Positions 33,475 through 62,148 are shown, counted from the stretch's first letter. The stretch: 64,000 nucleotides of DNA from a virus (IMGVR_UViG_3300008259_003073), one strand, 5' to 3'. The notes: generated from the letters alone by a model not told the origin. Made by a program: numbers and translations.

Positions 33475-33476
33475 AA

Positions 33477-35032: not shown

Positions 35033-35879
35033 AATTTTCTATTAATTTATTTACTACTTGAATTTGTGTGTAATTATGCAACACTTTCATCATTCCGTTA
35101 TGTGCAATTCTTTCCCTTTCCTCTTCGTTTTCATTGTAATAGTTCATCTTCTCTATACAATCGAACATCTCATCGTAATATACAATATCTTCCCCTTCTA
35201 CAAACATTTCAGATAAACCAGTTTCATCTGGCAACCTATCAGTTAATATCATCTTACCACACGCCATTCCTTCAAAGATTCTACGGGTAATTTCTTTCCA
35301 TCTACTATTCTGAATTACTATTAAACCAGTATTCAAAAATTCCGTATGTTCTTTAGGTCCTAATCCATTTCTATTACCAACTGCTCCCTCTGCCCAATTT
35401 GTAAGATAATCTAAAAATTGGGAATTTCCAAGTCCTCGTGTAGTTACTGCAACATATTGTGGTTCTAAATTCATTGGAAACTGAACTTTAGTATCTGCGA
35501 AATGATTTATCCATTCAGCATTTATACCTCTGTTTCTATATTCTTGTGCAGATTGTTTATCGGGTGTGATTGTGTAATGGAAACGATTTGCTTTAGGATA
35601 ATTTCTTTCAAAGTTTTGTGGGTCATCACCACTTTCTTGTATCCAAAATGCAGGAACTAAATCCTTATTAAGATATTGTGAATCAAATCTACCCCAATCC
35701 ATAAACAATACGATATCTGTTTGTGGTTTGGAATTTACCCAATTCTTTAAATCAGTATCATTTGTTTTGATTATTTGAGTTTCCCACCCTCTTTCTTTAA
35801 ATTCATTTACTAATGCCAATGGAGTAGACCATACTTCCCCATCTCTATAATCGTATATGAATGTTATTTTATTTTGCAT
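34992..35879 (-). CDS. GT-B glycosyltransferase (CgeB / Glycos_transf_1_2-like)
   Basis: RRIFEGMACG..ILTD, ERIAHNG...HNYT. Confidence 0.8.
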   Translation of the reverse strand: MQNKITFIYDYRDGEVWSTPLALVNEFKERGWETQIIKTNDTDLKNWVNSKPQTDIVLFMDWGRFDSQYLNKDLVPAFWIQESGDDPQNFERNYPKANRFHYTITPDKQSAQEYRNRGINAEWINHFADTKVQFPMNLEPQYVAVTTRGLGNSQFLDYLTNWAEGAVGNRNGLGPKEHTEFLNTGLIVIQNSRWKEITRRIFEGMACGKMILTDRLPDETGLSEMFVEGEDIVYYDEMFDCIEKMNYYNENEEERERIAHNGMMKVLHNYTQIQVVNKLIENYESFNNGSSGAIR

Positions 35880-36498
35880 ATTCTTCTCTTTTAAATAAAA
35901 CCTGATAATGATTAGTTACTTCTAAATTATATGGTGAATATGGTTTCCAATTTACACCATTTTGAATATAATCGGTTTCTGCTGAAAACCTGTTTGTATT
36001 TATATTTTTTACATCTATCGTTTTCGCGTAGTCCGCTTTCATCCACCAAAAGTTACCAGAATATATTGTCCATTTTCCAGCATTACCAAGTAAGACACCG
36101 TATGTATTAAAATCAGTTTTTTCAAATAATTTAAAAACATTTCTGGTTTTTTCTATATTAAAATAATTCATAAGATGTCTCCAAGATGCAACATTTGTGT
36201 TTCCTTGTTTGGATGCACCTTTAGTATGAAAATACAAAATATAATCCGAATCTGCAAATTTTTCTACATCTTTTTGTATTAATTCCAATGTAACAAATTC
36301 ATTACCTCTCGCTCTGACATCCCTTACATTTTTAAATTTAGTCAACAGATGGTATATTGATTTATTTTCTTCTGCAAGAGAAATCCCTATATTTAAAATA
36401 TAGGGAAAATCAAAATGTTTTTTTAATAAAGAAATCTGCTCTTCCACTATTGATTCTACCCCGTCTATTGCGTATATGTGATAATAGACGTGTACCAT
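35869..36498 (-). CDS. conserved glycan-cluster protein (probable glycosyltransferase)
   Basis: YYHI, NEFVTL, LYFHTKG, YSGNFWW motifs; cluster context. Confidence 0.6.
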   Translation of the reverse strand: MVHVYYHIYAIDGVESIVEEQISLLKKHFDFPYILNIGISLAEENKSIYHLLTKFKNVRDVRARGNEFVTLELIQKDVEKFADSDYILYFHTKGASKQGNTNVASWRHLMNYFNIEKTRNVFKLFEKTDFNTYGVLLGNAGKWTIYSGNFWWMKADYAKTIDVKNINTNRFSAETDYIQNGVNWKPYSPYNLEVTNHYQVLFKREEYAK

Positions 36499-37124
36499 TA
36501 TAGTGTATCGTAATAATTGTTTTGTCTTTCTTGCCTATCAATTGTTTTTGGATGTATAATACAATACACTTCATCTGATGGGAAATTGGTGTATGATTGA
36601 AACCCAACAATTCTTTCATGTACTTTACCACTCCAACCAATTGTTTCTGGATTGTTTTTGTAGATACGAGTCTGAACATCTGGGAAGTTAACCCATCCTT
36701 TCTCATTAACATTCCATCCCCATTTTTGAATATGTGCTTCAGTTAATCCTTCGACTGTATTGATTCTCGGAACTACTATCAAATCCTTATCAGTATTAGC
36801 TTCTAATAGCTCTTCCAAATTATAGATTAAATCATTTGATAGGTACTCATCGGCATCTAATTGAAATATCCATTCACCTTTACAATGTGAATTTAAAAAG
36901 TTTTTCCATTGTGCAAAATCATTATCAAATTCAGATTCAATTAAAGTGATGTAATTTGCATTAGCTTGCAATTCTAAATACTCAATCATTTCCGTAGAAG
37001 ATTTTGGAGTATCTAAAAGGACTACTATTTCCGAATTTTCACCTTTATAGTTTATCAGTTGTGTAATTAACCTTATAATTTCTTCATGCTCATTACAAGC
37101 CGTTATTGCGTAACTTAATTTCAT
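36498..37124 (-). CDS. GT2 glycosyltransferase
   Basis: LSYAITACNE, FAQWKN, WIFQLDADE, VHE. Confidence 0.85.
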   Translation of the reverse strand: MKLSYAITACNEHEEIIRLITQLINYKGENSEIVVLLDTPKSSTEMIEYLELQANANYITLIESEFDNDFAQWKNFLNSHCKGEWIFQLDADEYLSNDLIYNLEELLEANTDKDLIVVPRINTVEGLTEAHIQKWGWNVNEKGWVNFPDVQTRIYKNNPETIGWSGKVHERIVGFQSYTNFPSDEVYCIIHPKTIDRQERQNNYYDTL

Positions 37125-37125
37125 T

Positions 37126-37587
37126 TTAATCTTCGTTGTGTTGAATTTTTATATCATCTAAACCGTCACCAGTTGTATATGGTGGATTATATGTATTATT
37201 TGTATAATGCCATGCTGAACCACTTGGGTATCCATATGTGGTTGATGTACTCATACCATTGGGTGTGATGATTGTACTAATACTGCTACCTGGTGTACTT
37301 GCAATTGTTATACCAGGTGTTGATGGAGTTACAAATCCAGGTGATGGTGCCGTTCCGTTTGGTTTGACACATGGTATCTCTACATTTGGATAATAAGTGT
37401 GAGGTTCTTGCCATCTTGGAAATGGTTGTGTATTTGGAACATCCGCTCCAGTATATCCAATGGGTTGTGTATCGTTAACCTCTGCCAATTTTGCTTTTAG
37501 TATATCCCACTGCATTGGGGTAATGTTATACTGATGTACTCCTTCAGTAAATCCTTGTAACCAAATTACAAATTCTTTTGATGTCAT
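37126..37587 (-). CDS. hypothetical protein with low-complexity tail
   Basis: EFVIWLQGF N-domain followed by P/T/S-rich region. Confidence 0.7.
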   Translation of the reverse strand: MTSKEFVIWLQGFTEGVHQYNITPMQWDILKAKLAEVNDTQPIGYTGADVPNTQPFPRWQEPHTYYPNVEIPCVKPNGTAPSPGFVTPSTPGITIASTPGSSISTIITPNGMSTSTTYGYPSGSAWHYTNNTYNPPYTTGDGLDDIKIQHNED

Positions 37588-38066
37588 AACTGTGTATTTT
37601 CGTTATTTTGTTCTTTAATAGTTTTTATTGATTTTTTTACATTAGGAGTCAATCCTTCAATATCCATTTCTAATTCAGTTATTCTACCAAACCCACTTAT
37701 TTTATAAGTTCTATATGCTTCATTTGTTATTATAGGTACTTTAGAAACTACGGATGAATAAAACTTTTTTGCACCACCCTTCATTTCTAATTTATCTTCA
37801 TCTTCGTTTACAAATTTACCAAAAAATCTTTTTACTAAAGCCGGATTTATATTTGATACTTTAACTGCATGAACTACTCCTTTGGCTCTAGATACAAACA
37901 AAGTGTATATAATTGGTCCATCACCTATAGAGTATGATTGCTTTGTACCATCTACATATTCGTATTGCATTATCATATAGAATTTTCCACGCCTCATTCT
38001 TTCGGGTGATACTGATTTATCACCCTTATCTATGTACTTGCGATATATACGATTATATGCTGACAC
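37584..38066 (-). CDS. hypothetical protein, weak resemblance to T4 gp2 DNA end protector
   Basis: GKFY..Y...P.IY...; YRTY pattern. Confidence 0.35.
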   Translation of the reverse strand: MSAYNRIYRKYIDKGDKSVSPERMRRGKFYMIMQYEYVDGTKQSYSIGDGPIIYTLFVSRAKGVVHAVKVSNINPALVKRFFGKFVNEDEDKLEMKGGAKKFYSSVVSKVPIITNEAYRTYKISGFGRITELEMDIEGLTPNVKKSIKTIKEQNNENTQL

Positions 38067-39334
38067 TACTTATTTAACATTTTTAGTTTAGGTAATTGCA
38101 GTTGTTGAAACTTTGGTTGTATCTTACTATAAATACCATATTGATTCAAAATTCCATCAAACAATTTAGTCATTTTTTCCAATCCAAAGTTTTGTTTATT
38201 TTGTTTGCCCAATTGTAAAGATGCCGTTTTGTATTTTTCATAGTTCTTATAAACATCTTTTATAGATGATAATGCTTTTGAAATGTTTACATTAAACCAT
38301 TGTGATTCTTTTAATAAGAATTGGTCTGCTGCTGATTCATGTACTGGTTTTAATTCACCTTCCAATAAAACAGCTCCTTGCTTTAAGAAATCCAAATGTC
38401 CACTCCAATTAGATACAATTACAGGTTTACCCGTCAAACTGAACTCCAATAGGGGTCTACCAAACCCTTCACCTTTTGTGAAGTTTAACATTGCTTTTAC
38501 TTTCGGATGTTCATACAATCCGTTCATTTGAGCAGGTGTTAAATCACCATGCAACAAATAGATTGGAACTGATTTATAATCATTACCCAATACCTCTCTA
38601 ATTTTTTTAATAGTGGTTTCTCTATCCATTACAGAGAATCCTGCTGAAGATGTTTTAAGAACCAATGCGGGTTTTACCTTTTCATTTTTGAATGCCATTG
38701 CGAATGTTTTAATCATCATTCCCACATTCTTTCTATCTTCACCCAAATCACCTCTTAACCAATGTCCTACAAATAGGAATGCAAACTCTTCTTTGATTGA
38801 ATCCAATTCGGTAATATGCTCAAAGGTTTTGGTTCCAAAATCAGCTTCATCAAATCCTTCGAAGAGGATTTCAACAGGTTTTTGAATTCTGTGTTGTGCA
38901 ACTAATTGTCCACTTTGTTTATCTTGCTCATTATATACCGTATCTACTAAACTTTTCTTTGAATGTTCGGATGGAACTATAATTAAATCCATTCGATTGC
39001 ATCCATGAATCCAATCTAATGCACAATGTGTAGTTTCAATTGCTGCAGTAATTCCAATGTTATAAAACCCTAATGGTTGAAATTCATTTGGAACTGTAAC
39101 TTGAATATAAATGTCAGGTTTTTCTGTAATCTGTGGAATGATGTTATCTACCGCCCATTTATGAAATTCATTATCATAATTAAGAGCATCCATTGGGGTA
39201 TTCCCCCAACGAGTGCTAATAATTTTAATATCAAACTTATCTAATTTATATAAAGAGTGTAACAAATCTCTCGCGTGGTCACCATACCCACTTCTTGTTG
39301 CAATTGGTGCCTGAAATACTAATGTTGGTTTCAT
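38066..39334 (-). CDS. GT4-like glycosyltransferase
   Basis: TRSGYG, RKNVG, TKGEGFGRPLLE, PVIVSNWSG. Confidence 0.85.
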   Translation of the reverse strand: MKPTLVFQAPIATRSGYGDHARDLLHSLYKLDKFDIKIISTRWGNTPMDALNYDNEFHKWAVDNIIPQITEKPDIYIQVTVPNEFQPLGFYNIGITAAIETTHCALDWIHGCNRMDLIIVPSEHSKKSLVDTVYNEQDKQSGQLVAQHRIQKPVEILFEGFDEADFGTKTFEHITELDSIKEEFAFLFVGHWLRGDLGEDRKNVGMMIKTFAMAFKNEKVKPALVLKTSSAGFSVMDRETTIKKIREVLGNDYKSVPIYLLHGDLTPAQMNGLYEHPKVKAMLNFTKGEGFGRPLLEFSLTGKPVIVSNWSGHLDFLKQGAVLLEGELKPVHESAADQFLLKESQWFNVNISKALSSIKDVYKNYEKYKTASLQLGKQNKQNFGLEKMTKLFDGILNQYGIYSKIQPKFQQLQLPKLKMLNK

Positions 39335-39335
39335 A

Positions 39336-40718
39336 TTATAACTCTATTAACTTAAATTTTTTCTTTGGTTTCCAATTTTCAAATGCACCTTCCATACCAT
39401 CTGATAGTGTTTTACACATTGCTTCTCTGCTCAACAATCCATCACCTAACATCCACTTTCTTCCTTTTAATGCTGCTGCATCTCTATCTTCTTTTGGAGT
39501 TAAATACCATTCCATAATCAATGGTGATATATCTTCGAAATCAACCCTATCATCAAAAATATAAGGAGTAGGAACTGAACCCGTGGTTGAACGAACTGGC
39601 CAAATTGGTTTAACCCAATCTCCCCAAACTACACCTGCTTTTTTATGTCTATCATGTAATGAACCTATCTCTACATAATCTTCTGCGGTTAGTAATTTTC
39701 CAGTTGTAATATCTCTAAACCCACATTGGTCTTGCAATCCACCTGTTACCGTTACAATAATTGGAGTTCCTGCCATTACCGATTCTGCAGTTGCTAATCC
39801 AAATCCTTCGTTAGATGCTACGTTAATTGTTACATCTCCCAAATTATAAAGATAATTCAATTGTTCTTCTGTATATCGGTTTGGAGCGAATACTACATTT
39901 GTTTCAGATGAACAACACTCTGCTATAGTTCTCGGTAAATCCGTTCCATGCTCTTCAACTGGATTAGTGTGCATCAATAAACATACTTTACTTCTATGCT
40001 CTGGAGCTAATGCCTCCACAAATTTATCAAATGCAAGAATTACATCAATTGGTTGTTTTCTACGAATGTTTCTATTATTCCAATATAAAACAAAATCGTA
40101 TTCCTTTTCACCAAAGATTTCTTTTTTGAAATCAGCTGGTACTTCAACTGGCTTATACAAATCCGAATTGATACCATGCGGTACATAACTTACTTGCCAA
40201 TCAGCAGGTGGTGTCCAATGCTTTTCTTTATCCCATCCCCAAACTCTACGAGTAATCCCATAAGTTTGCTTTGAAATACATCCAATCCAATCACAACTTT
40301 CGTAATAATCTCTATTGTATTTTGGGTCTGGTAAATCATCCCAAATGTGATAAAAGAAAAGGGGAACTGATTGACGAATTTCATGTTCAATTTCATACAA
40401 CCAAATCCAATATCTAGGGTCAGTAAAGTGTAAGATAGCATCAGGCTTTTCTACCATCAATAATTGACGAATAATGCCTGGATTACCATAACCATCTGAT
40501 GGGTAAATTTTTACATTCGCATCTTTTACGCCAGTTTGTTCTCTAACACTTTCGTTTAAATCTAAAATCTTACCTGCTTCTGGATGTTTGATTGCTGCAC
40601 CTAATTGAACCCAATCATATTTATCAACCGTTCCCATAACTAATTGTTTGGAAACATTAGCTATACCACTCGACATTCGCAAGTCGTCCGATAATAATAA
40701 AATCTTCTTTTTTGCCAT
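39336..40718 (-). CDS. GT4-like glycosyltransferase
   Basis: SGIANV, VPHG, RNIRRK, SNEGFGL...E..MAGTPII. Confidence 0.85.
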   Translation of the reverse strand: MAKKKILLLSDDLRMSSGIANVSKQLVMGTVDKYDWVQLGAAIKHPEAGKILDLNESVREQTGVKDANVKIYPSDGYGNPGIIRQLLMVEKPDAILHFTDPRYWIWLYEIEHEIRQSVPLFFYHIWDDLPDPKYNRDYYESCDWIGCISKQTYGITRRVWGWDKEKHWTPPADWQVSYVPHGINSDLYKPVEVPADFKKEIFGEKEYDFVLYWNNRNIRRKQPIDVILAFDKFVEALAPEHRSKVCLLMHTNPVEEHGTDLPRTIAECCSSETNVVFAPNRYTEEQLNYLYNLGDVTINVASNEGFGLATAESVMAGTPIIVTVTGGLQDQCGFRDITTGKLLTAEDYVEIGSLHDRHKKAGVVWGDWVKPIWPVRSTTGSVPTPYIFDDRVDFEDISPLIMEWYLTPKEDRDAAALKGRKWMLGDGLLSREAMCKTLSDGMEGAFENWKPKKKFKLIEL

Positions 40719-44482: not shown

Positions 44483-45229
44483 TTATATTTCAAAATTTTC
44501 TTTAATATATTTGTATAGATTTTTTGCGTATTCTTCATTTTGAAGTGATGTTGCATGTGTGTGACTATCTTTAAAATTTGGATAATCACCATCAAATCTA
44601 CTTTCATCGGTATATTCCGTCCCAACAAATGTACCATTCCAAATAAACGGAATTTGTTTTGATTTCAAATAATAAGTTATTAATTGGTGATTTTTATACC
44701 AATTTATAAAATCTTCTTTATCATTTGATGATGCAATTTTATTAGCCCATATCATTCTACCTTCTTTTTCTTCATCAAAATATCCCCAAGGATTTGGGTG
44801 GTATGGTTCTACATCACCATTATCTCTGTAGAATTCTCTCCTATGAGGATATGTGTACATCACCAATACTATTGATGGTTTTAATTCGTCTACCCAAGTT
44901 AAAATACTTCTGGCAATATAATCATTACTTCTACCACTTATACCCAAATTTAAATCAACACCATTTGGTATCATTCTAGATAAACAATGTGACCAAGTTT
45001 GTCTATCATGTACACCTATTCCTTCAGTGTGAGAACATCCAACTGACATTATTTTCAATCCTTTCTTTTTAGGTGAATCACCTCTAAATCCTAACTCATT
45101 GAATGTATAATAACAAGTTCCAGCATCTGAACCGTTTCCTAATAATTCTTTATTCTTTCTTTCTTTTAATAGCCACTTATAACTTGCTATATCAAATCCA
45201 TTTGGATTCCAAAATTTTAAACTTTCCAT
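44483..45229 (-). CDS. SGNH/GDSL-like hypothetical protein
   Basis: NELGFR, VGCSHTEG.G, NLGISGRSND, C-terminal HTH/HAT. Confidence 0.65.
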   Translation of the reverse strand: MESLKFWNPNGFDIASYKWLLKERKNKELLGNGSDAGTCYYTFNELGFRGDSPKKKGLKIMSVGCSHTEGIGVHDRQTWSHCLSRMIPNGVDLNLGISGRSNDYIARSILTWVDELKPSIVLVMYTYPHRREFYRDNGDVEPYHPNPWGYFDEEKEGRMIWANKIASSNDKEDFINWYKNHQLITYYLKSKQIPFIWNGTFVGTEYTDESRFDGDYPNFKDSHTHATSLQNEEYAKNLYKYIKENFEI

Positions 45230-47802: not shown

Positions 47803-49374
47803 TTAAGGTTTGTAGAAAATAAAGATTGGTTCATATTTGTAGGATGTACCACCTATTTTCATACTATTTTTCACTCCACTCAAATCAACTCCAGTCATTG
47901 GAGACATTGTCATTCTCAACTTACCTTTATACTCCATTCCTAATTCAACCAATATATCAATTGAATCTTGTTCTAAAGTAAACCACTTATCAGAACCAAC
48001 TTTAATATCGGCAATGTTCCAACAGATGTATCTATCGTTTCGTAAATACTCATACGCGGTTGTTAAAGTAGGTAGTAGGAATCCATCTCTCCAACTATCG
48101 TAGTTATTGAACTTCTTAAATGATTGAGATTCATCATCTGAATATCTCTCTCTATCAAAGTAAGGTGGTGATGTGAATACAAAATCTAGTTTACCTTTGT
48201 ATTTCTCAAATCTGGCATCTAAATGAATTATTTCAGAACCCGTTGTAAATATTTCATACGTTGATTTATGCCCCCAAAATGGATTTGCAGCTCCAGGTAC
48301 TTTACTATTAAAGAATTCACCTAAATACTCATACCTAGTCTTTTGAATTTCAGGAATAAAATTTTCAGTATTTGGGTCATTACCAATATAATGAATATTT
48401 CTATCATCCACACTCAATGCACCTAATATCCTACCACCCCAACCTGCTGATGGGTCATACACATTGATTACATCTTGCGTTTTAATGTGTTCTGTAAATC
48501 TTTGATACAGATACTTCGCAGTTAGTGGTGGAAAATTTACTGCTGCCTGTGTTCCCATACCAATACGGAATGCTGCAGTTGCTTCTGGAAAGATAGTTTG
48601 ACCAAACGGATATGTTTTAATCTGTATAGGTTGTTTTGGAATATCAACTAAATTGTCAATATTATCTCCCCAATCCGCAGTTTTAAGTGATGAGATATTC
48701 TCATACTTTAATATACCTGCTTTGTATAAATCCTTTACTTCCTGTGCAGTAATTGGTGGAGATGGAACTTTACTATCTGCCTGTGATAAACAAAATCCAT
48801 GTCCTTCTTGAACTTCACCCGCTGCCCATCTTTCAATCCATTCCTTACCACTCTGAATATGTGAGTTATGAAAATCTTTGTGATTTAAGTGTAGGGTTTT
48901 AGAAAAACGATACATACCATCTTGCCTAGTCAATCTTCGCATTTGCTTAATAAACTCTGGCAAATATGCATCATCTACAAATATATCATAAATGGATGGT
49001 TTTGGTTTATCGTATGAAGAACCACCAATACCAGTCTTATACATTGCAGGAAAAAATTGATTTACAGGAGTAGCGAATTTATTGAAGTTAAAAATTACTT
49101 CATTACCATCATCATCTCTTTCTTCAAACTTATCTACCTTATAGGTTTGTAGTTTAGAAAAGTTTTCTATGATTTCCGCTTCATCTATACCAATTCTTGG
49201 AGGTGCGTTTGTAGCTGCCCATCTTTCAACGGCAGTTTTACGAAAGAATGCCACCCACTCTCCAAATTTAGTGAATGGCATTTTCAATACATCTTCGTAT
49301 TTAAGATTTATTTCAGGCGAATAAATCCAATCGTTTCTTTCGTAAAAATACTTCTTTGTATAGTTGAAGCTCAT
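47803..49374 (-). CDS. SAM-dependent amino (N6A/N4C-type) DNA methyltransferase-fold protein with large N-terminal region
   Basis: YDPSAGWGGR (motif I), GNDPN, FTSPPYFDRERY (motif IV). Confidence 0.8.
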   Translation of the reverse strand: MSFNYTKKYFYERNDWIYSPEINLKYEDVLKMPFTKFGEWVAFFRKTAVERWAATNAPPRIGIDEAEIIENFSKLQTYKVDKFEERDDDGNEVIFNFNKFATPVNQFFPAMYKTGIGGSSYDKPKPSIYDIFVDDAYLPEFIKQMRRLTRQDGMYRFSKTLHLNHKDFHNSHIQSGKEWIERWAAGEVQEGHGFCLSQADSKVPSPPITAQEVKDLYKAGILKYENISSLKTADWGDNIDNLVDIPKQPIQIKTYPFGQTIFPEATAAFRIGMGTQAAVNFPPLTAKYLYQRFTEHIKTQDVINVYDPSAGWGGRILGALSVDDRNIHYIGNDPNTENFIPEIQKTRYEYLGEFFNSKVPGAANPFWGHKSTYEIFTTGSEIIHLDARFEKYKGKLDFVFTSPPYFDRERYSDDESQSFKKFNNYDSWRDGFLLPTLTTAYEYLRNDRYICWNIADIKVGSDKWFTLEQDSIDILVELGMEYKGKLRMTMSPMTGVDLSGVKNSMKIGGTSYKYEPIFIFYKP

Positions 49375-49375
49375 T

Positions 49376-50095
49376 TTATGCGGTTAATTGTACTTCTACC
49401 AAATAATAGTTTGCAGTGAAATCATCAATTTTGAATTCAACGTGCGCCAATCCTGAAGTAGATATTTTTAATACTACCGAAGTAGCTTCTTTGTTTGCAG
49501 AGAAAATCTCTTTGAGATACTTTGCGGAGAATGAAATAGGTTTAACTTCTTCACTATAATCTTTGTTAACTGAAAATTCAATTAGAGTTGAATTTACATT
49601 TGAATAACCTAATACAAGTTTCAATTCACTATTCTTTGTAAGAACGGTAAATGTGTCTACATCAGATAGTGCGTTTTTAGCTTTGATAAATTTGTCAATA
49701 AATTTACCATCAAATGCGATTTCAACATCAAATTCTGGTAGAGATTTCAAATCCGGAACTGATGGAATAACTGCTAAATCCGCTAATTGGAATTGAGCTT
49801 TTGTGTCATCACTTTTGATAAATAGACTTACAGCCTTTCCATCAACTTGCTGAACATCCAGTTCAACATCATCACCTACAACTGATAACAATTTTGTCAA
49901 TTGAGATGTTGTGTAAATACCTAAATTAGGTGTTGTTTGCGTGAAATTATCTAGTTGAATTTCACCTAATACCGTCTTATCATCGGAGATAAAACGAGTA
50001 ACCAATTTCCCATCTGCTGCTTTCCATGCAACCGATTCTACTAATCCTGCCAAATTGTACTTTTGGATAAATCTTGTAATTCTTGTTTTGTTCAT
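49376..50095 (-). CDS. DNA polymerase sliding clamp (gp45/PCNA-like)
   Basis: 239 aa, GIY...L..LLS, FSAKYLKEI; replisome context. Confidence 0.8.
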   Translation of the reverse strand: MNKTRITRFIQKYNLAGLVESVAWKAADGKLVTRFISDDKTVLGEIQLDNFTQTTPNLGIYTTSQLTKLLSVVGDDVELDVQQVDGKAVSLFIKSDDTKAQFQLADLAVIPSVPDLKSLPEFDVEIAFDGKFIDKFIKAKNALSDVDTFTVLTKNSELKLVLGYSNVNSTLIEFSVNKDYSEEVKPISFSAKYLKEIFSANKEATSVVLKISTSGLAHVEFKIDDFTANYYLVEVQLTA

Positions 50096-50118
50096 GTTTT
50101 TTAAAATTTAATTGTTTA

Positions 50119-50149
50119 CGAATATAATATATTTTTTTGGTATTTACAA
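50119..50149 (-). promoter_or_regulatory. Bacteroidota-type promoter (TTGT-N19-TATATTCG)
   Basis: 19-nt spacer, upstream of clamp gene. Confidence 0.65.
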
Positions 50150-50153
50150 GTCA

Positions 50154-51305
50154 TTATGGTTTTTTCCATATCCATACTGGCTCACAAAATGTTTTGTTTT
50201 TTGCTTCTTCCGCTTTTAATAAAGCTTCTTCTGTATATCTTTCCTCATCCCCTTCTATAATTGCTCCTGCACCTGCTGAACCTGGTCTCTTTGCCATCTC
50301 CATCCCTAAACACCCTTCATAGATACCTCCCAATGATTTGATGTAATCGTTCATAGGGTTTGTTATTTCTTGGTATCCTTTACCATCCCCTTTGGAAGAT
50401 GCATATACATCTGCAATGTTAATTGCTAAATACCCACCCTTTCTAATAGTAGGCCAAACCTTTTCGATTGTTTTATGTAAGAATAATTTATTCCATGCAT
50501 CAATGTTGTTGTATCGAACCCAACTTTGGGTATCGTCATAAGAATATCGTTCAACATTGAAATATGGGGGTGAGCTGAAAACAATGTCAAAATAATCGGT
50601 GTACTCACTATAATCCATGTCTTCAGCTGGAATTGGGTGATTTTCTTTTCTCGGGTCAATACCCACATAATGTTCTCCTTTTTCAGATGCCATAAATCCA
50701 CACAATCTATCTCCCCATCCCGCCGATATGTCTAACACATTTTTTGCACCTACCATATCGTAAAGTGCTTTGGCAACATTGGGTTTGAATTGTGAGCAAA
50801 TGTACTTTCTTAAACTCAAACAAACTCGCAGTTCGTTTCTTCCTACTTCATCAAATTTAAGAGTGTATAACCCACCCATTAAAGACGTCATAAAATCCTT
50901 ACTTGCCCACGTTCTATGAGGACCTGGCGAAACGGTGCCGTCTACACTCCAACGATTTGCTTGTTGAAAGAAATTGGATGCAGAGTTACCAGTGTTTAAC
51001 CTTTTTACAAATTGCTTCTTACCTCTGAATGTTAAAGGATAATTACTTTCCGATGCTTTACGAGGAAACCACTCACCCTCTTTAAGTAGTTCGTTGTAAC
51101 GAGTTCCTTTGAGAGCAAGGTATTCCTTTCTAGCTTCGGTTTCTGTGATTTCGGCATACGGTAATTCGTATTCCATACACAATTGCGCAAGAGAGTCTTT
51201 TACATCATCTCTGTCAAAAGTGCTTTTAATATAACTCCACTCTTCACTATTGATGTGAAGGTATGGAGCCATATTTTTGAACTTGTTAAAGTATTCTATA
51301 TACAT
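50154..51305 (-). CDS. second amino-MTase-fold protein, apparently with in-frame internal deletion
   Basis: QFKPNVAK, LDISAGWGDR, GIDP, FSSPPYFNVERY; very short motif II-IV spacing. Confidence 0.75.
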   Translation of the reverse strand: MYIEYFNKFKNMAPYLHINSEEWSYIKSTFDRDDVKDSLAQLCMEYELPYAEITETEARKEYLALKGTRYNELLKEGEWFPRKASESNYPLTFRGKKQFVKRLNTGNSASNFFQQANRWSVDGTVSPGPHRTWASKDFMTSLMGGLYTLKFDEVGRNELRVCLSLRKYICSQFKPNVAKALYDMVGAKNVLDISAGWGDRLCGFMASEKGEHYVGIDPRKENHPIPAEDMDYSEYTDYFDIVFSSPPYFNVERYSYDDTQSWVRYNNIDAWNKLFLHKTIEKVWPTIRKGGYLAINIADVYASSKGDGKGYQEITNPMNDYIKSLGGIYEGCLGMEMAKRPGSAGAGAIIEGDEERYTEEALLKAEEAKNKTFCEPVWIWKKP

Positions 51306-51315
51306 AACTTAATAA

Positions 51316-53586
51316 TTAATTATTCTGTAATTCCGTAACATAAGAATCTAAAACAACATTTCCACTTTTAAAAGAATAACTGCTATTATATTCAATTTCA
51401 AAATAAGAAAGTACAATTTTTAAATTTTCTCGTGCTTTCTTTGCGTTGTTGTAATCTTCTTCTTTTGCTTCATTATCGCTATCTTCAATGAATTCAATCT
51501 TTCTTTTATTTAGAGTATCATTGCAATTTGCAATCATTTCTTTCCAAAATAAGTCAAATGATTTTTGATTTAGTTTAAATTTATGTCTATTATCTTTATT
51601 AAACTCAAATATCCACATTTTATCACGAAGAACTCCACCATCCGAATCAGCTTCTAAATGCCCAACATCAAATTCTTCAACTTTACGAAGTATTCCATCA
51701 CGCGTATTAAAGATTTTAAAATTTGATAAATCGTTATTTTTTATTTCTTTTTTAAGAAAATTTAAAAATTTCAATCTTTCTTTTGAAGTAGTTGATGCAT
51801 CTATATATTCTAAATCTAAAACTGGTTTTACAACATCAATGAAAAATGTATCTATAACTGCATATATTTTTTCGATATTACCACCTTTAAAATGATATAA
51901 TGGACCAAATGTAGGCGTATCATTTCTATCATCTAAATCCGATGCTCTACATACATCTTTCCAATCATCAATATTATACTCAAATTTAAAAAATGATTTA
52001 GGTCCTTCATATAAATCAATTTCAAAATTCCAAACAAAATCTAACCACTTTTGAGTTGTAATTTCAATAACTCTATTAAGCACATCTGTAATATGTGTTT
52101 CGGATAGATTTTTGTTTTGTAATACAAAATCAATAGTATTTAATAATATTGGATAAAGTAATTCTTTTTGTTGTAATCTCAACTTATTAACAGTACCTAA
52201 ATTACCAGGTTTATCTATACCAATATTTTTAAGATATTCTCTAATTATTTCGGTTTCCTTTTGTAAATGAGTATTCCATAGTTGAATTATTTTCTCGTTA
52301 TTTAACCCAACATTTTTTTGTGAATTTTGAATTCTATTATATCCTAATGTAGCTTCAACCATATTAAAAACTTTTAGAAATTCGGATTCTAATTGCTTTA
52401 CATTTCGTTTGTTTCTTTCGGAATATTCAATATATTCGGCAACAGTCTCTTGAACTATTTTAGTTCCTTTATCAAACGGCCTAGCTAAACCATTATAAAA
52501 CCAATTTTGATAACGCTTTAAACCATAATCACTTTTAATATCCGCACCATTAATTTGAATTAAACATGATGTAAGAAAATGATAAATGTATCTATCATAT
52601 TCATTATATTCAGAACCATGAATATTATCATTAATTACTCTAAAAAATGGATTGTTTTTATCAGATTTTGCAAAACATGCGGATAAAATGGCTGGTTTAT
52701 GTACATCTCTTGGATTTTTACTATTATCATATACTACATTATCATGCCAAGCATCTTTTACCATAGTCATTGATAAATTCACATCCGATTGTCCGGCACC
52801 TCGTTTACCTTCTCTATGATACGATTCACTTTCACATCCATTACTTTTTCTTTCTAATATTACATTTGGTTTTAAATCAAGAATTGAATTAATTAATTTA
52901 AAATATCCATTCTCTTTTAACCAACTAACAGTTAAAAATTGATTTTTTGTAATTACAAAATCATCTTTAAAAGCACCTAATGCTAATTTTAAAAGATTTA
53001 ATAAATCTGAATTTTTACCGTTTTCCCATCTATTAGAATTTTTAATATATCTGTTTTCAACTTCATTAAATTCTCCTTTTTCATCAAGAACTTTCCATAC
53101 TTTTGAATCGGTAAAATAACTAAACCATCTCCATACTAATTGAAATTTACTTTCACCATCCCATATACCAACTAATTTAAATTCTCCATAAGTATCTGTA
53201 TTTATTTTTAAAGTTGGAATTGAACTGTGTGTAATCCAAGATATAAAACCATCACTAATACTATCGTAATCCCAAGTAGATGTTCCACAATCTTCGTTCT
53301 TATTAAGAGTTCTTATTACCGAAGATTTACCCCTTTGTCCTTTTGATGGTAAAAATATTGTTGTAGACATTACAGGTTTTACATTATACTGCACATCTCT
53401 AAAAGATATAGGTTCATAATGAAACAGTAAATCTCGATAGGTTAGTTCTTTCAATGTTCCCCACGTACTTGATGAGTTATTGAAGTTTTCTATTACATTT
53501 CTGATTTGTTCTTCTTTGGTGAGAACGATACCTGATAGATTAGCTCTGTCTAACAAAGCCTTATCAATTTTTTTTGAGTATCTCAT
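51316..53586 (-). CDS. divergent DUF262 (ParB-like) + C-terminal HNH protein (GmrSD-like architecture)
   Basis: P..GQR...W, WDGESK (DGQQR-like), DVGHLEADSDGG...NKDNRHK (HNH-like). Confidence 0.55.
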   Translation of the reverse strand: MRYSKKIDKALLDRANLSGIVLTKEEQIRNVIENFNNSSSTWGTLKELTYRDLLFHYEPISFRDVQYNVKPVMSTTIFLPSKGQRGKSSVIRTLNKNEDCGTSTWDYDSISDGFISWITHSSIPTLKINTDTYGEFKLVGIWDGESKFQLVWRWFSYFTDSKVWKVLDEKGEFNEVENRYIKNSNRWENGKNSDLLNLLKLALGAFKDDFVITKNQFLTVSWLKENGYFKLINSILDLKPNVILERKSNGCESESYHREGKRGAGQSDVNLSMTMVKDAWHDNVVYDNSKNPRDVHKPAILSACFAKSDKNNPFFRVINDNIHGSEYNEYDRYIYHFLTSCLIQINGADIKSDYGLKRYQNWFYNGLARPFDKGTKIVQETVAEYIEYSERNKRNVKQLESEFLKVFNMVEATLGYNRIQNSQKNVGLNNEKIIQLWNTHLQKETEIIREYLKNIGIDKPGNLGTVNKLRLQQKELLYPILLNTIDFVLQNKNLSETHITDVLNRVIEITTQKWLDFVWNFEIDLYEGPKSFFKFEYNIDDWKDVCRASDLDDRNDTPTFGPLYHFKGGNIEKIYAVIDTFFIDVVKPVLDLEYIDASTTSKERLKFLNFLKKEIKNNDLSNFKIFNTRDGILRKVEEFDVGHLEADSDGGVLRDKMWIFEFNKDNRHKFKLNQKSFDLFWKEMIANCNDTLNKRKIEFIEDSDNEAKEEDYNNAKKARENLKIVLSYFEIEYNSSYSFKSGNVVLDSYVTELQNN

Positions 53587-53628
53587 AATTCTATGAAGTT
53601 TAAAAGGTAATTCAACCCGTTATTAATA

Positions 53629-53659
53629 CAAATATAAGAAAAGTATTTCGAAATATCAA
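53629..53659 (-). promoter_or_regulatory. Bacteroidota-type promoter (TTGA-N19-TATATTTG)
   Basis: Perfect TAnnTTTG -7 element, 19-nt spacer. Confidence 0.75.
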
Positions 53660-53678
53660 GCACTTTCTCATTTACTTT

Positions 53679-54518
53679 TTAAGAAAAAATCCATCTTCCT
53701 CCAATGTTCCAAAATAGTATATCTCCATCTAATTTTTCAATGTTATCCGATAACCATTTCCACTGTTTAATATCCCAAAATTGATTGCAAGGAAATGGTG
53801 CTTCAAAATTATCTAACCTATCGTTAAATCCATACTCTGATTTTTCAATATGAACATTGGTTGGGTCATATACATTGTGTTGTACATACGTTCCTTTGAC
53901 CGTTCTGTAAGATGAAACACAAGTACTCCAAGCGTGTCTATCTGGTTTTTCCCAAAAGTTATTCCTTTGCCCTACGAATTTTTTAATCAATCCAGATGAT
54001 GTTACTCCCTCACCCGATGAAACTACTAAATGTTTAAAATCACCCTTTTCTTCCAAAACCCTTTCCATCTTTTTTTCCATGTAATCAACATAGAAACCAT
54101 CGTTGAATGCATAAGGTAATAACTGCCATTTTCCTACCGATGAATTTTTTAATTGAGCATACATTATATCCTGTATGTTGTTTTGAATAGGATTGAATAT
54201 CGTTTTGGGGTGTAGTGTTTTAACCTTTTCTATTAGGGCCTGGCTGATTACTTTATTGTCAGGATACGAATATATGAAGTCTATCCCTAACTCCTCACAT
54301 ATCGCAGCTAATGCCCAACCAGACCAACTTCCGTTTACTACCAAGTGGGTTAAAGGTTTTGACCTATCAACATACTTATCTACTAAATTATAGATTGCTT
54401 CAATTTTTCCCCAAGGTGGTAGTGATTCACCATCACCCATCAAATCATCTCGCTTAACCCAAACCTTTCTACCTTTCAATTCATACACCTCTAATGGTGT
54501 ATTTGTATTTAAAACCAT
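53679..54518 (-). CDS. fold-type II PLP enzyme (ACC deaminase / D-cysteine desulfhydrase-like)
   Basis: TPLE...VWVKRDDL...WGK (PLP Lys), VVSSGEGVTSSG, LFWNIGG. Confidence 0.8.
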   Translation of the reverse strand: MVLNTNTPLEVYELKGRKVWVKRDDLMGDGESLPPWGKIEAIYNLVDKYVDRSKPLTHLVVNGSWSGWALAAICEELGIDFIYSYPDNKVISQALIEKVKTLHPKTIFNPIQNNIQDIMYAQLKNSSVGKWQLLPYAFNDGFYVDYMEKKMERVLEEKGDFKHLVVSSGEGVTSSGLIKKFVGQRNNFWEKPDRHAWSTCVSSYRTVKGTYVQHNVYDPTNVHIEKSEYGFNDRLDNFEAPFPCNQFWDIKQWKWLSDNIEKLDGDILFWNIGGRWIFS

Positions 54519-55384
54519 ACTCTTTCGTGTCTTTTTAGATGGGCATCTTCTATAGTGTTTTCTTTACATTTATCAATTAGTTTTTTCAAATCATCTGCAA
54601 AGTTACTATTAACATACCCACCAATCTTACCTTTAATAATTGGTTGATTGTAACTCCAAGATACGTGTTCATAATATCTGATGTTTGGAAATTCTGTTAT
54701 TTGAGGTCTATGGTCGGATGTTAGCATATCAAAGTGTCCTTGCTTTAACTTACCACTTGCTATGAAATTAACTAACGCAGGATTACTGATTACTTCTCCT
54801 CTACTAATAGAAATTATATCAACTTCTTTTCGTATTTTTGAAAACAATACATCATCAAAATATCCCTTTGTACTATCATTTAAAGGTAGTGTAATTACAA
54901 TAGTTTTAGCAAATGCTAAATATCTATCCACTTCTTCTTGTGCAGTTTTGGTATTAACAACATTGAAATTTCCAATGTGTTTTTGTAACTCTTTACTGAT
55001 ACTACCGTTACCAAATATCAATACCGCATCATCTTCTTTAATCTTATCTTTAATCCAATTTGCACAAGGTACTGCAGTTGGTGATAATGCAACAACTCCG
55101 ATGTTCTTATCTTTACAATCTTTTAAGTTTACCATATCCACACCATGTGAACGACAAACTATCCATTCTAAATTTGGATACTTATTTAAAGTTTGTTTGC
55201 CAATCTTTGAAAACTTAACAGAAAGAACCTTAACTTCTGGATATGTATCTTTTGGTCTTTCGTATGCACCCAATACTTGTACATTCGGTAATCTTTCTAA
55301 AACGGATTCTACAATATCAGCTTTATCTTTTAATAATACATCGTTATACATTTGTAAACTTTTTAAGGGTTGATTTATTGTCAT
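54509..55384 (-). CDS. D-isomer-specific 2-hydroxyacid dehydrogenase-like
   Basis: SHGVDMVNL....KNI.V, IFGNGSI, TLPLNDSTKG, SISRGEVI, D..H. Confidence 0.8.
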   Translation of the reverse strand: MTINQPLKSLQMYNDVLLKDKADIVESVLERLPNVQVLGAYERPKDTYPEVKVLSVKFSKIGKQTLNKYPNLEWIVCRSHGVDMVNLKDCKDKNIGVVALSPTAVPCANWIKDKIKEDDAVLIFGNGSISKELQKHIGNFNVVNTKTAQEEVDRYLAFAKTIVITLPLNDSTKGYFDDVLFSKIRKEVDIISISRGEVISNPALVNFIASGKLKQGHFDMLTSDHRPQITEFPNIRYYEHVSWSYNQPIIKGKIGGYVNSNFADDLKKLIDKCKENTIEDAHLKRHERVWF

Positions 55385-56894
55385 ATTTTATAAATGATTC
55401 ATCAAAGTATTCTTTGATTTTATCTTTTTCTTGCTTTAAAAAATCGGTATGACATCCAACTTGAAATGTTTTTTTAGGTCTCCATAGAATTTCATCCGAT
55501 ATTTCACCCTCAAATGATTTCCGTAAAAGATATTTCATAATTTTTCCCCTACCATTTGCTTCATCTCTATATCGTGTTGGTGTTTGTAATCCAAATTCAA
55601 CTAAAGTTTTATCTAAAAACGGTGTTCTTAATTCAACAGTACCACCATACATCATTGCTTTGTTTGTTCTAATCAAATTACTTCTATGTAACTCTCTTAA
55701 CAATTGAACTCGTTTTGAATGATACAATTTTGGGTCTTGCCAACTCCATCGAAATACATCTCCGTAACTTGCAAATATCTCATCACTACCTTCACCACCA
55801 AACACAACTTTAAAACCACGATTGTCAATTTCTTTTGCCAAAAACAATTGTGCTACTGCTGGAGATATTTGAGTCCACTTCCAATCTTCGGATGCGTAAA
55901 TTGATTCTTTTAATTTATCAACTATTTCTTCTTTGGTAACATTTACTTCTATTAACTCAATACCAATTTCTTTACTGAATTCTCTTGCGTAATACAAGTC
56001 ATCTTTTAAGTTTGCTTTTCTTGTGCCAGATGTTACATTTACAACAAATGCTTTTAGATTTTTAACACGCTTACTCAACAGATATGTAATAATTACTGAA
56101 TCTATTCCACCACTTAAAATTGTACAAATAGGAACATCTGCTATTAACTCATTATCAACTGCTTTGTTTAATAACAAATTCAATTTAGATGTATAGTGTT
56201 CTAATCCTAAATCATTTGAATCAGTATCTTTTTTTAAGAAGTCATTGAAATTAAAATAAGTGTGGGTATGTGTATCACCTGTTTCCAAATAGTAAATCAT
56301 ACAAGTACCAGGTGTTACCGTTCGTATAATTTCTTCTTTTCTATCCTTTGAATTTTTATTTGCGTGATGATAATTTACTTTAAACGAATCCGTTAATGCT
56401 TTTATCTCACTAGCAAATGCTATTTTTCTATCAGCATCTTCCAAATAATAAAAAGGAAGTCTACCAATAAAATCTCTTCCTAAAAATAAAAAATTAGATT
56501 TTCTATCGTATATACAAAAACTGAACATACCATCCAATCGTTTCATAAAATCAATTGGTTCATGTCCAAATTTTTTGTACATCAATGCCAACAATTCGGT
56601 ATCTGAACTTTCTGTTTTTGTTTTGTATTCATTTCTTAAATACGAATACTCATCTATTGTATTTTTCCAAAGTTCTCCATTGAATACAACAACAACCTCC
56701 CCATCCACATCTTCAAATGGTTGGTTTGCTATTTCAGAAAGGTCTTGGATTGACAAACGATTATGAGCCATAAACAATCCGTTTAATGGTTCAATGACGG
56801 TAGAGTTATCCCGTCCTCTATGTATTATTTTTTTAAGAGATAACTCTACCTGTTCTTTACTATTAAATGCGTTTCCGCCGATTATTCCACACAT
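55344..56894 (-). CDS. asnB: asparagine synthetase B-like glutamine amidotransferase
   Basis: MCGI, HRGRD, HNRLSIQD, FNGE, SDTE, GMFSF, LSGGIDS, GEGSDEIF, ELRTPFLD. Confidence 0.9.
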   Translation of the reverse strand: MCGIIGGNAFNSKEQVELSLKKIIHRGRDNSTVIEPLNGLFMAHNRLSIQDLSEIANQPFEDVDGEVVVVFNGELWKNTIDEYSYLRNEYKTKTESSDTELLALMYKKFGHEPIDFMKRLDGMFSFCIYDRKSNFLFLGRDFIGRLPFYYLEDADRKIAFASEIKALTDSFKVNYHHANKNSKDRKEEIIRTVTPGTCMIYYLETGDTHTHTYFNFNDFLKKDTDSNDLGLEHYTSKLNLLLNKAVDNELIADVPICTILSGGIDSVIITYLLSKRVKNLKAFVVNVTSGTRKANLKDDLYYAREFSKEIGIELIEVNVTKEEIVDKLKESIYASEDWKWTQISPAVAQLFLAKEIDNRGFKVVFGGEGSDEIFASYGDVFRWSWQDPKLYHSKRVQLLRELHRSNLIRTNKAMMYGGTVELRTPFLDKTLVEFGLQTPTRYRDEANGRGKIMKYLLRKSFEGEISDEILWRPKKTFQVGCHTDFLKQEKDKIKEYFDESFIKYDNKSTLKKFTNV

Positions 56895-56912: not shown

Positions 56913-57176
56913 TTACTTTAAGTGCTCATTTAACGCATTCATATATGTTAATTTAGAAGATACACCAGTAAATCTTTCAACCTCTACACCGTTCTTTTCT
57001 ATCACAATTGTTGGTACTGAACGAATTGAGTATTTAGTTGCTTCATTATATGCCTCATCCACATCATAATCTTCAAATTTTACATTTGAAAATTGAGTTT
57101 TAACTTCGTTAATTACTGGTGCCAATGCTCTACATGGACCACACCAAGATGCACTAAATTTCTTTACTGTTAACAT
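56913..57176 (-). CDS. trxA: thioredoxin
   Basis: FSASWCGPC, IRSVPT. Confidence 0.95.
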   Translation of the reverse strand: MLTVKKFSASWCGPCRALAPVINEVKTQFSNVKFEDYDVDEAYNEATKYSIRSVPTIVIEKNGVEVERFTGVSSKLTYMNALNEHLK

Positions 57177-61842: not shown

Positions 61843-62148
61843 TTATTTAACTACCATTAAAATTTCCGATTCTCTTAATAGGATATATTTGTTCCCACCA
61901 ATTTTAATTTCTTGTCCTTGATGGTATGGTGGGAGAATTACTTCATCACCTACTTCAACATTCATTGGAATCAATGTTCCACTTTGCGTATAAATGCCAG
62001 GTCCTGTTGATTCTACCTTTGCTCTTTTTACATCTTCACTTCTTACTGAATCGGGTATAATAATACCACCTGCAGTTTGTGAAACTTCTGGTGCTAATTC
62101 TGTTAGTAGAACTCTATCTCCTAACGGCTTTACTAATTTGTTTGTCAT
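61843..62148 (-). CDS. groS: co-chaperonin GroES
   Basis: KPLGDRVL, TAGGIIIPDS, GPG, VEVGDEV, LLRESEIL. Confidence 0.95.
   Translation of the reverse strand: MTNKLVKPLGDRVLLTELAPEVSQTAGGIIIPDSVRSEDVKRAKVESTGPGIYTQSGTLIPMNVEVGDEVILPPYHQGQEIKIGGNKYILLRESEILMVVK

Follow-up and report, generated by a model that had tools for sequence, protein, structure and literature searches.

A swappable gene cassette beside methyltransferase-fold enzymes of a large freshwater phage is a candidate system for DNA base hypermodification

Why does a large phage carry an amidotransferase, a 2-hydroxyacid dehydrogenase and a PLP enzyme within its replication genes? Such a trio is encoded by IMGVR_UViG_3300008259_003073, a large uncultured freshwater phage, in a 64,000-nucleotide stretch of DNA that we refer to as the window. 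A preliminary description proposed that the trio and two methyltransferase-fold enzymes (MTase1 and MTase2) constitute a new pathway of base hypermodification. Sequence comparisons suggest that, most probably, the phage attaches a bulky group of a kind not yet described to its own DNA bases.

Results

The seven open reading frames of the block (47803-56894) are all present where the preliminary description had placed them, on the minus strand, as are all features of the block given below. Pfam searches find the claimed thioredoxin/RNR and PolB genes on its flanks. The genes of the trio do overlap, by 41 nt between the AsnB-type amidotransferase and the 2-hydroxyacid dehydrogenase (HADH) and by 10 nt between HADH and the PLP enzyme (PALP). 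The sliding clamp (49376..50095) was correctly recognized as PCNA-like, based on weak Pfam (PCNA_C, 2e-4) and NCBIfam (NF002222, 2e-7) matches. Clamp and MTase1 are syntenic in relatives; the clamp is a replication gene outside the proposed pathway.

The last gene of the trio (53679..54518), previously called ACC-deaminase-like, does encode a fold-type II PLP enzyme, but its family is instead that of gp52 of Pseudomonas phage M6 (phrog_7093). Residues 1-273 align over profile positions 1-278 of 279 at 2.4e-21, with the weak match to the generic Pfam PALP domain (2.5e-4) far below this, and identity to M6 gp52 is 28% over the full length. The family-specific C-terminal motif PFPCN..WD.K.W...FWNxG is common to both proteins. 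K38 is invariant in an alignment that includes gp52 and the fused PLP domains described below, and it corresponds to gp52 K36, named as the Schiff-base lysine (PMC8989533). For the sole characterized relative, gp52, biochemical experiments demonstrated decarboxylation of an amino acid that is joined to thymine in DNA (PMC8989533). By sequence, the window enzyme belongs to the M6 gp52/ViI gp226 family, and decarboxylase activity is putative here. Because decarboxylation of the gp52 type would take away the carboxylate that the AsnB-type enzyme requires, either the PALP does something else or the AsnB-type enzyme uses another carboxylate.

At the other end of the block, the 523-aa MTase1 (47803..49374) was rightly labelled a SAM-dependent transferase. 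It has motif I (DPSAGWGG), motif IV (SPPY), a Pfam N6_N4_Mtase match (4.7e-6), a 280-aa N-terminal domain and a class I methyltransferase domain in an AlphaFold model with a pLDDT of 89.8. The model is closest to Trm11/TrmN/METTL5-like amino-methyltransferase folds (Z 14-16), the nearest solved folds being tRNA m2G methyltransferases, and a fold search does not separate methyl transfer from aminocarboxypropyl transfer for this protein. Neither a THUMP nor another RNA-binding domain could be detected in this protein. From its motifs and Rossmann fold, MTase1 is a predicted amino-directed class I methyltransferase; methyl transfer to DNA is putative. SPPY is the form of motif IV usually seen in enzymes that act on N4 of cytosine.

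Motifs and alignment identify MTase2 (50154..51305) as an SPPY class I paralogue. Motifs I and IV are present as described, but the window record alone lacks 26 aa (78 nt) between motifs II and IV, with the gap at 50630/50631. Sibling contigs L119 and L120 retain the 78 nt and encode an MTase2 of 409 aa, and contigs of public runs have 78 extra letters at this joint. All 24 public runs listed were either sequenced on Illumina or have no platform on record; none carries the label long-read, the data type in which the preliminary description had suggested looking for modification signals.

Natural fusions connect these enzyme families. P0198 joins an MTase-like and a gp52-like domain (phrog_7093, 1e-46), P0096 and P0113 combine MTase1-like and PALP domains in both orders, and P0119 and P0154 join an MTase-like domain to the GNAT of one of the cassettes described next. 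The fusion genes adjoin genes for integrases and ParB_N proteins, and nothing else nearby is a candidate for placing an amino acid on DNA, leaving SAM as the sole visible source of an amino-acid group.

In ~55 related viral contigs, four alternative cassettes occupy one slot between thioredoxin and MTase2. The 5.5 kb AsnB-HADH-PALP block, which can include the 756-aa orphan p756, is one of these (type A; 9 loci plus the window, where its full extent is 51307..56814). Type B encodes a TS-like protein, AsnB-B and a PALP (18 loci), type C encodes AsnB-C and a GNAT (24 loci), and type D encodes another gp52-like PALP along with genes without assigned function (2 loci). By blastn, L031 is 95% identical to the window down to 56815, has no similarity over 56814-51307, and becomes similar again at 51306; one relative, 95% identical to the window at the nucleotide level in the flanking DNA, has AsnB and GNAT genes in the slot, and the swap borders are sharp. 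The AsnB-HADH-PALP block is a cleanly bounded, swappable cassette adjoining MTase2.

The preliminary description had suggested testing the synteny of the trio with the SPPY enzymes across phage genomes. In every one of the 45 loci with both a cassette and MTase2, no more than 2.5 kb separates the two, and in 32 of them the distance is at most 100 nt. Type C has nothing but the overlapping genes for AsnB-C, GNAT and MTase2. The trio of L121 has no SPPY gene within 8 kb, in partial agreement with the independent occurrence that the preliminary description had counted against its pathway, and MTase2 is absent within 20 kb in L020. The genes nearby in relatives (for MazG, an HD hydrolase, GmrSD_N+HNH and an enzyme of the TS family) are of the sort usually met in phages that replace or modify their bases.

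The p756 protein (51316..53586) falls in the segment without similarity to L031 and is exchanged along with the trio. Its earlier DUF262-HNH label found no confirmation. Searches with p756 returned no Pfam, PHROG or NCBIfam assignment, none of the seven family members (p756 and six homologues) has a Pfam match, and hhalign against the true GmrSD_N+HNH protein of L005 gives a probability of 0.1. The only invariant features are motif-like strings, WDGESKFQ (142-149) and FDxGH..NRH (639-668), and the structure model (pLDDT 50) is too poor for a fold search. A large orphan (p756, p543, p600 or p420) can accompany every cassette type; these are mutually unrelated and absent at several loci (L018, L023).

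Could the SPPY enzymes be ordinary orphan m4C/m6A methyltransferases beside a recombination hot spot, with the trio tailoring a handle made by another enzyme? MTase1-family genes do stand alone, in L127-L129 and in Vibrio, Staphylococcus and Bacteroides phages, which also bears in part on a condition that the preliminary description had set against its pathway. Cultured-phage members are annotated as DNA methylases, or as an N4-cytosine methylase in the case of a Vibrio phage homologue. It is common for anti-restriction methylases to come as several paralogues in one genome, each cassette type may carry a large orphan, and type B brings its own TS-family enzyme, which points to a nucleotide-level C5 handle rather than a SAM-derived one. 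Candidate handle-makers would be p756, the other large cassette orphans, or a gene beyond the window. However, the fusions to gp52-like PLP and GNAT domains sit in minimal surroundings where no other transferase is present, the overlapping genes of type C include only MTase2 besides AsnB-C and GNAT, and the large orphans are neither related to each other nor always present. We consider this explanation unlikely.

The AsnB-type label of the first gene of the trio (55344..56894) is sound, given matches to Pfam Asn_synthase (1e-50) and GATase_7 (3e-28) and to NCBIfam TIGR01536 (280 bits, cut-off 267). The protein also matches NCBIfam eps_aminotran_1 (1e-51), and among solved structures it comes closest to AsnB of E. 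coli (1ct9, 8e-47). With true asparagine synthetase B it shares the two-domain build, the Cys1 glutaminase site, SGGxDS and K450; the glutaminase residues C2, R50, N75, E77 and D99 and the PP-loop SGGxDS are invariant in the AsnB alignment. Unlike the true enzyme, it has D385 replaced, and its gene is swapped with two other AsnB types in one slot. A further comparison concerns T322, T323, R325 and C523, which PMC5775275, citing Boehlein 1997, links to beta-aspartyl-AMP formation and aspartate binding. Only one of the four is kept. Of the residues named there, T322 is retained, T323 is Q and R325 is S, and the chain stops opposite E. coli residue 497, with the C-terminal 50-60 residues, including C523, absent. 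All three AsnB types (35-42% pairwise identity) retain the glutaminase and PP-loop residues and lack R325, T323 and C523 of that set.

The middle gene (54509..55384) encodes a short, 291-aa D-isomer-specific 2-hydroxyacid dehydrogenase, as the preliminary description had it, with both Pfam domains (PF02826 2-Hacid_dh_C, 7e-13; PF00389 2-Hacid_dh, 2e-9). GxGxxS, R195, D219 and H240 are invariant across 22 family members, which come from metagenomes only, and the last three residues are consistent with a catalytic triad. The HADH gene has a PLP gene as its partner in every case found, and the trio (L121) or the HADH-PALP pair (L123) recurs in unrelated marine contigs.

Taken alone, the trio may instead be a small-molecule pathway, producing asparagine, or else some uncommon amino acid or amine, from a precursor of the aspartate or serine family, with none of its enzymes touching DNA; its product may be the donor for something else. 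The AsnB of the window does score just over the asparagine synthase equivalog cut-off, with E. coli AsnB as its nearest solved structure, and the marine loci place HADH-PALP next to a PanD-like aspartate decarboxylase (L123) and next to an amidohydrolase (L121). SbnA and SbnB, a fold-type II PLP enzyme and an NAD-dependent dehydrogenase that lead to diaminopropionate, offer a precedent. We nevertheless regard this as quite unlikely: R325, T323 and C523, of the aspartate-site residues in the cited account, are absent from AsnB, the PLP enzyme falls in the DNA-acting gp52 family rather than a metabolic PALP family, a DNA-methylase-like domain occurs in single proteins with PLP or GNAT domains, and the swapping of three divergent AsnB types with different partners would be odd for a housekeeping function.

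Highly improbable, in our assessment, is that the substrate of the trio is a sugar or glycan, with uronic acid amidation for the phage's large glycosylation islands as one example, or that the system modifies RNA such as tRNA. A glycan island does lie 10.6 kb downstream (25637-40718), AsnB-like amidotransferases and GNATs are frequent in glycan pathways, as the eps_aminotran_1 match recalls, and the solved folds nearest to MTase1 act on tRNA. Yet the trio lies outside the island, contrary to the glycan linkage that had been named as evidence against the pathway, and across the ~55 loci the cassette is always in the replication/nucleotide block and never within a glycan island. Mel-JY01 carries the island with neither cassette nor MTases, MTase1 is without a detected THUMP domain, and the PLP enzymes known from sugar pathways are of fold-type I rather than of the gp52 family.

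Discussion

What chemistry would tie together the family assignments, the catalytic residues, the exchange of cassettes, the adjacency and the fusions shown above? We propose that the block is a modular post-replicative system that hypermodifies the phage's own DNA bases. The SPPY paralogues MTase2 and MTase1 would be the constant part, aimed at an exocyclic amino nitrogen, and the cassette in the thioredoxin/MTase2 slot the variable part. An SPPY enzyme would transfer the 3-amino-3-carboxypropyl group of SAM, instead of or besides methyl, giving an alpha-amino-acid side chain on the base. In an uncertain order, the gp52-family PLP enzyme may then work on the alpha-amino-acid end, the dehydrogenase may handle the resulting 2-oxo or 2-hydroxy acid, and the AsnB-type enzyme may amidate a carboxylate with glutamine-derived ammonia, leaving a bulky neutral group. 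Sister cassettes would yield other ends: an acetyl-amide from AsnB plus GNAT, or an aminopropyl group from the PLP enzyme alone, as in the fusions. That an SPPY enzyme places a SAM-derived amino-acid group on an exocyclic nitrogen for the cassette to tailor has, we estimate, about an even chance of being right.

The general idea of base hypermodification by MTase-fold enzymes plus the trio gained support. It is favoured because of the gp52 kinship, the four-cassette slot with its sharp swap borders, the adjacency of MTase2, the fusions, the recurrence of trio and pair in marine contigs, the losses at the AsnB aspartate site (R325 and C523 among the residues cited), the typical neighbours and the CmoY precedent discussed below. 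It is weakened because MTase1-family genes are often alone, fusions are just 5 of the best 150 representatives of a family of 3779 representative clusters, the nearest folds are tRNA enzymes, and L121 and L020 lack SPPY and MTase2 genes, respectively. A bolder and rather doubtful extension is that a large MTase-fold family transfers the aminocarboxypropyl group of SAM (aminopropyl after decarboxylation) to DNA bases, which phages diversify with plug-in cassettes. The plug-in chemistries would be decarboxylation, acetylation, amidation and oxidation/reduction. If true, hypermodification of DNA would have a third general route in addition to those that start from 5-hydroxymethyl or 5-carboxymethyl handles, and DNA with aminocarboxypropyl groups would be described for the first time.

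How does the system compare with known ones? The preliminary description knew of no pathway with this combination, and the literature searched reports none, but M6 gp52 (PMC8989533) and CmoY (PMC12783734) precede parts of it. Aminocarboxypropyl modification of DNA was likewise not found in the searchable literature. Diphthamide (Dph2, Dph6) and acp3U/yW (Tyw2, TapT) biosynthesis use SAM as a 3-amino-3-carboxypropyl donor, the logic proposed here, and in diphthamide a PP-loop ATPase amidates the carboxylate of the SAM-derived group. TapT provides a precedent for this transfer in RNA (PMC12630136). Unlike the window system, these act on protein or RNA and belong to unrelated families (radical SAM, DTW, Trm5-like).

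Closer is the 5-carboxymethylcytosine system CmoA/CmoX/CmoY of Synechococcus phage S-B43, in which a methyltransferase-fold enzyme places a carboxylate derived from a SAM analogue on the base and an asparagine-synthetase homologue amidates it, so that AsnB homologues act on a DNA-base carboxylate; a candidate ligase cluster with a glutamine-hydrolysing domain is described as well (PMC12783734). The order proposed for the window is the same, handle installation by an MTase-fold enzyme followed by amidation, and both systems have an asparagine-synthetase-family ligase, a likeness by domain match rather than by alignment to CmoY/A0A7T0Q3R0. Unlike in Cmo, the window transferases carry the amino-directed SPPY motif rather than SPPC, and the Cmo system does not include PLP and dehydrogenase partners. 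Neither CmoA (TIGR00740) nor a C5-methyltransferase (PF00145) was matched in three complete relatives, whereas control genomes did match.

Thymidine hypermodification in Pseudomonas phage M6 and Salmonella phage ViI (PMC5889632, PMC8989533) differs from the window system, which has no radical SAM isomerase and in which the PLP enzyme is joined by SPPY transferases, AsnB and the HADH. Single-sequence queries with M6 gp54 and gp51 found no 5-hmdU DNA kinase or aGPT-Pplase in the complete relatives G001, G002, G004, G005 and G007. A tblastn search with the TS-like protein of type B as query found no TS-like hydroxymethylase in the window, Pfam flagged no TS-like gene in 53 of its larger minus-strand ORFs (~60% of these), and in complete relatives the single ThyA is canonical and bears PFNIASY. 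Lee et al. remarked on unexplained amidotransferases close to M6/ViI-type clusters (PMC5889632, PMC8989533). The two systems share a gp52-family PLP enzyme with its catalytic lysine and C-terminal motif, placement among replication and nucleotide genes, and modular tailoring genes (PLP, acetyltransferase) that vary between related phages.

Gene order and host

The window is AT-rich (~32% GC), and the minus strand carries nearly all of its genes, including all those given coordinates in the window here. The transcription order is RNR small, RNR large, thioredoxin (56913-57176), AsnB (55344-56894), the 2-hydroxyacid dehydrogenase HADH (54509-55384), the PLP enzyme PALP (53679-54518), p756, an orphan of 756 aa (51316-53586), MTase2 (50154-51305), a PCNA-like clamp (49376-50095) and MTase1 (47803-49374), followed by the family B DNA polymerase (PolB) and the clamp loader. 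Domain and profile matches, together with motifs, upheld the preliminary identification of AsnB, HADH, the clamp and both genes of methyltransferase fold, which carry SPPY as motif IV. The protein earlier labeled DUF262-HNH, p756, received no assignment from Pfam, PHROGs, NCBIfam, ESM Atlas or hhalign, nor from its AlphaFold model (pLDDT 50.5). Directly after PolB lies a 248-aa orphan (44483-45229) that occurs in the closest relatives only; in other relatives a clamp takes the same position.

Among named phages, the nearest is Microcystis phage Mel-JY01 (PolB identity 49%), which lacks all seven genes considered here and has only two small genes between thioredoxin and PolB. It shares part of a glycan island (25637-40718) that encodes several GT1/GT2/GT4 glycosyltransferases, an NDP-sugar epimerase, FkbM-type and other methyltransferases, a GHMP kinase and a 2OG oxygenase. 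The phage also encodes GroEL (Cpn60; 23006-24625) and GroES (Cpn10; 61843-62148). A CarboxypepD_reg, Plug and OMP_b-brl_3 architecture is typical of Bacteroidota, and because the phage encodes a TonB-dependent-receptor-like outer-membrane protein of this kind (825 aa; 5416-7893), its host may not be a cyanobacterium.

An exchangeable cassette

We retrieved 110 related loci from IMG/VR by searching with PALP and MTase1, then located all genes in them by tblastn. Between thioredoxin and MTase2, the same slot holds one of four types of cassette. Type A (AsnB-A, HADH and PALP, hereafter the trio) occurs in the window and nine loci, and type B, with a short protein of the thymidylate synthase family, AsnB-B (35% identical to AsnB-A) and PALP, in 18. 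Type C pairs AsnB-C (41% identical to AsnB-A) with a GNAT acetyltransferase whose gene overlaps MTase2 (24 loci), and type D combines a different gp52-like PALP with proteins without assigned function (two loci). MazG, an HD hydrolase, a P-loop-GNAT fusion and a true GmrSD_N+HNH protein are additional at some loci. In some type B relatives, the last of these is encoded directly 3' of PALP (L005:7293-8783), and a P-loop NTPase fused to GNAT is encoded ahead of the thymidylate-synthase-like gene (L005:2938-4110). A GIY-YIG (LEM-3-like) nuclease gene between MTase2 and PolB (L088:6113-6688) probably encodes a homing endonuclease.

The cassettes lie within 2.5 kb of MTase2 at 45 of the 45 loci with both, and within 100 nt at 32. 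Exchange is visible between close relatives. The 95% nucleotide similarity of the window to one related contig (L031) ends at 56815, 80 nt inside asnB, and resumes at 51306, the start of MTase2; in L031, 1.9 kb (AsnB-C and GNAT) stand in place of the 5.5 kb between these borders, and in a second contig (L039) 2.8 kb do. In the window's lineage p756 was exchanged along with the trio, and other type A loci (L018, L023) are without it. The large orphan proteins of different cassettes have no mutual similarity detectable by phmmer.

Among cultured phages, no carrier of the trio was found (AsnB matches are ≤31% identical, HADH has none, and PALP matches only M6-like phages), nor any carrier of the type C GNAT or of full-length MTase1. 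The gene cassette is real, conserved and exchangeable, and its swaps among near-identical genomes amount to a natural experiment on rapid change of phage DNA chemistry.

Enzymes of the cassette

PALP had been described as ACC-deaminase-like. Its Pfam PALP match is weak (2.5e-4), but its match to PHROG 7093 is full-length (2.4e-21), which places it in the family of gp52 of phage M6. Among 50,697 phage records, PALP matches only genes named ‘threonine dehydratase’ in M6-like phages of Pseudomonas, Bordetella and Sphaerotilus, and a sequence search against solved structures gave no match. The alignment shows no variation in the Schiff-base lysine (K38, equivalent to gp52 K36) or in a C-terminal motif specific to the family. 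M6 gp52 has been shown biochemically to be a PLP-dependent decarboxylase whose substrate is C-alpha-glycinylthymine in DNA (PMC8989533).

The glutaminase residues, the PP-loop and K450 are conserved in each of the three AsnB types; in all three, T323 and R325 are replaced and the C-terminal part bearing C523 is absent. In E. coli AsnB these three residues have roles in beta-aspartyl-AMP formation and aspartate binding, according to PMC5775275, which cites Boehlein 1997. Because of these replacements and the missing C-terminal part, the cassette AsnB is probably something other than a plain asparagine synthetase, judging from sequence and despite a score just above the NCBIfam cut-off for asparagine synthase.

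HADH forms a short clade known from metagenomes only, with its Arg/Asp/His triad intact, and its pairing with PALP persists beyond this phage clade. A marine locus (L121) encodes an amidohydrolase, HADH, PALP (40% identical) and AsnB-A (49% identical). Another (L123) encodes HADH, a PALP with 46% identity and then a PanD-like aspartate decarboxylase; a homologue of MTase2 lies at a distance of 4 kb, and PRPP-synthetase-like and NAMPT genes lie upstream of the pair (L123:91-6569).

MTase1, MTase2 and fusion proteins

The MTase2 gene of this record is 78 nt (26 aa) short in the stretch from motif II to motif IV. The gap, at 50630/50631, is in frame and its junction has no microhomology. The 78 nt are present in two sibling contigs (L119 and L120, 97-98% nucleotide identity; the intact allele of L119 is at 12282-13511) and in contigs of two public sequencing runs, X2 and X10. 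Run X13 has loose ends that match them, so the gap reflects either an allele peculiar to this record or an error of assembly.

The model of MTase1 (pLDDT 89.8) has a catalytic domain nearest to the amino-directed enzymes Trm11, TrmN/Trm14, METTL5 and N6AMT1 (Z 13-16); this predicted structure supports the fold only and is silent on the group transferred. A sequence search of the methyltransferase profile against solved structures gave no match. An exhaustive search for MTase1 yielded 3779 representative clusters, and the best 150 of these include five fusions, all of them metagenome proteins. P0198 joins a methyltransferase-like domain to a gp52-like domain (phrog_7093, 1e-46; 31% identical to gp52), P0096 and P0113 join MTase1-like and PALP domains, with both orders represented, and P0119 and P0154 join a methyltransferase-like domain to a GNAT resembling that of type C. 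Integrase and ParB_N genes adjoin these fusions, beside which no kinase, thymidylate synthase or aGPT-Pplase gene was found.

Proposed chemistry

To our knowledge, all known amino-acid-type DNA modifications start from 5-hydroxymethyl or 5-carboxymethyl pyrimidines. Homologues of CmoA, a C5-methyltransferase and M6 gp51 and gp54 were sought on relatives' contigs, and none occurs in three complete relatives (237-287 kb); the two searched for thymidylate synthase (G004, G005) have one canonical ThyA each. Judging from these relatives, neither known route, by 5-carboxymethylcytosine or by 5-hmdU, is therefore present, and we rejected both the CmoA/CmoX system and the M6-type kinase and transferase. 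Since the locus lacks these starting enzymes but retains tailoring enzymes, either fused to an amino-directed SAM-dependent transferase or next to one, a different handle is indicated. A gp52-type enzyme would need an alpha-amino acid on the base, and a GNAT an amine. The SPPY enzymes may transfer the 3-amino-3-carboxypropyl group of SAM; our main argument, from which we infer this, is that SAM is the only visible amino-acid source in the two-domain fusion.

The most likely reading, and one we hold with about as much belief as doubt, is that the SPPY SAM-dependent transferases set the handle of a DNA base modification, which the cassette then tailors. Against it, MTase1-family genes are frequently solitary. 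At the marine locus L121, no SPPY gene lies within 8 kb of the trio. In type B, the thymidylate-synthase-family enzyme suggests a C5 handle. The sequence of deamination, reduction and amidation in the preliminary description would account for HADH, at the price of a PALP reaction without precedent in its family; if PALP decarboxylates like gp52, AsnB loses its obvious carboxylate because PALP would remove it.

Occurrence and comparison with known systems

Lake metagenomes commonly contain this phage. In 17 runs at least half of the words sampled from the 9-kb stretch discussed here are present, and the 20 runs that contain it represent 15 studies dated 2019-2025; it should thus be possible to obtain material for chemical testing. 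Metatranscriptome contigs (run X18) span parts of all the genes, with DNA carry-over possible.

How restriction, CRISPR and other defences turn out is decided by phage DNA hypermodifications, which are also a source of DNA-labelling enzymes. The cassette would belong to this already known phenomenon. Our literature search found neither this gene combination nor aminocarboxypropylated DNA described in any paper, and SAM-derived aminocarboxypropylation of DNA, if confirmed, would be a new general route. M6 shares the gp52 decarboxylase family with PALP, whereas its gp51 and gp54 are without counterpart in the complete relatives. For AsnB homologues on DNA, there is, beside an untested glutamine-dependent cluster, the precedent of CmoY, which in the Cmo system acts on DNA as is proposed here for the cassette AsnB (PMC12783734).
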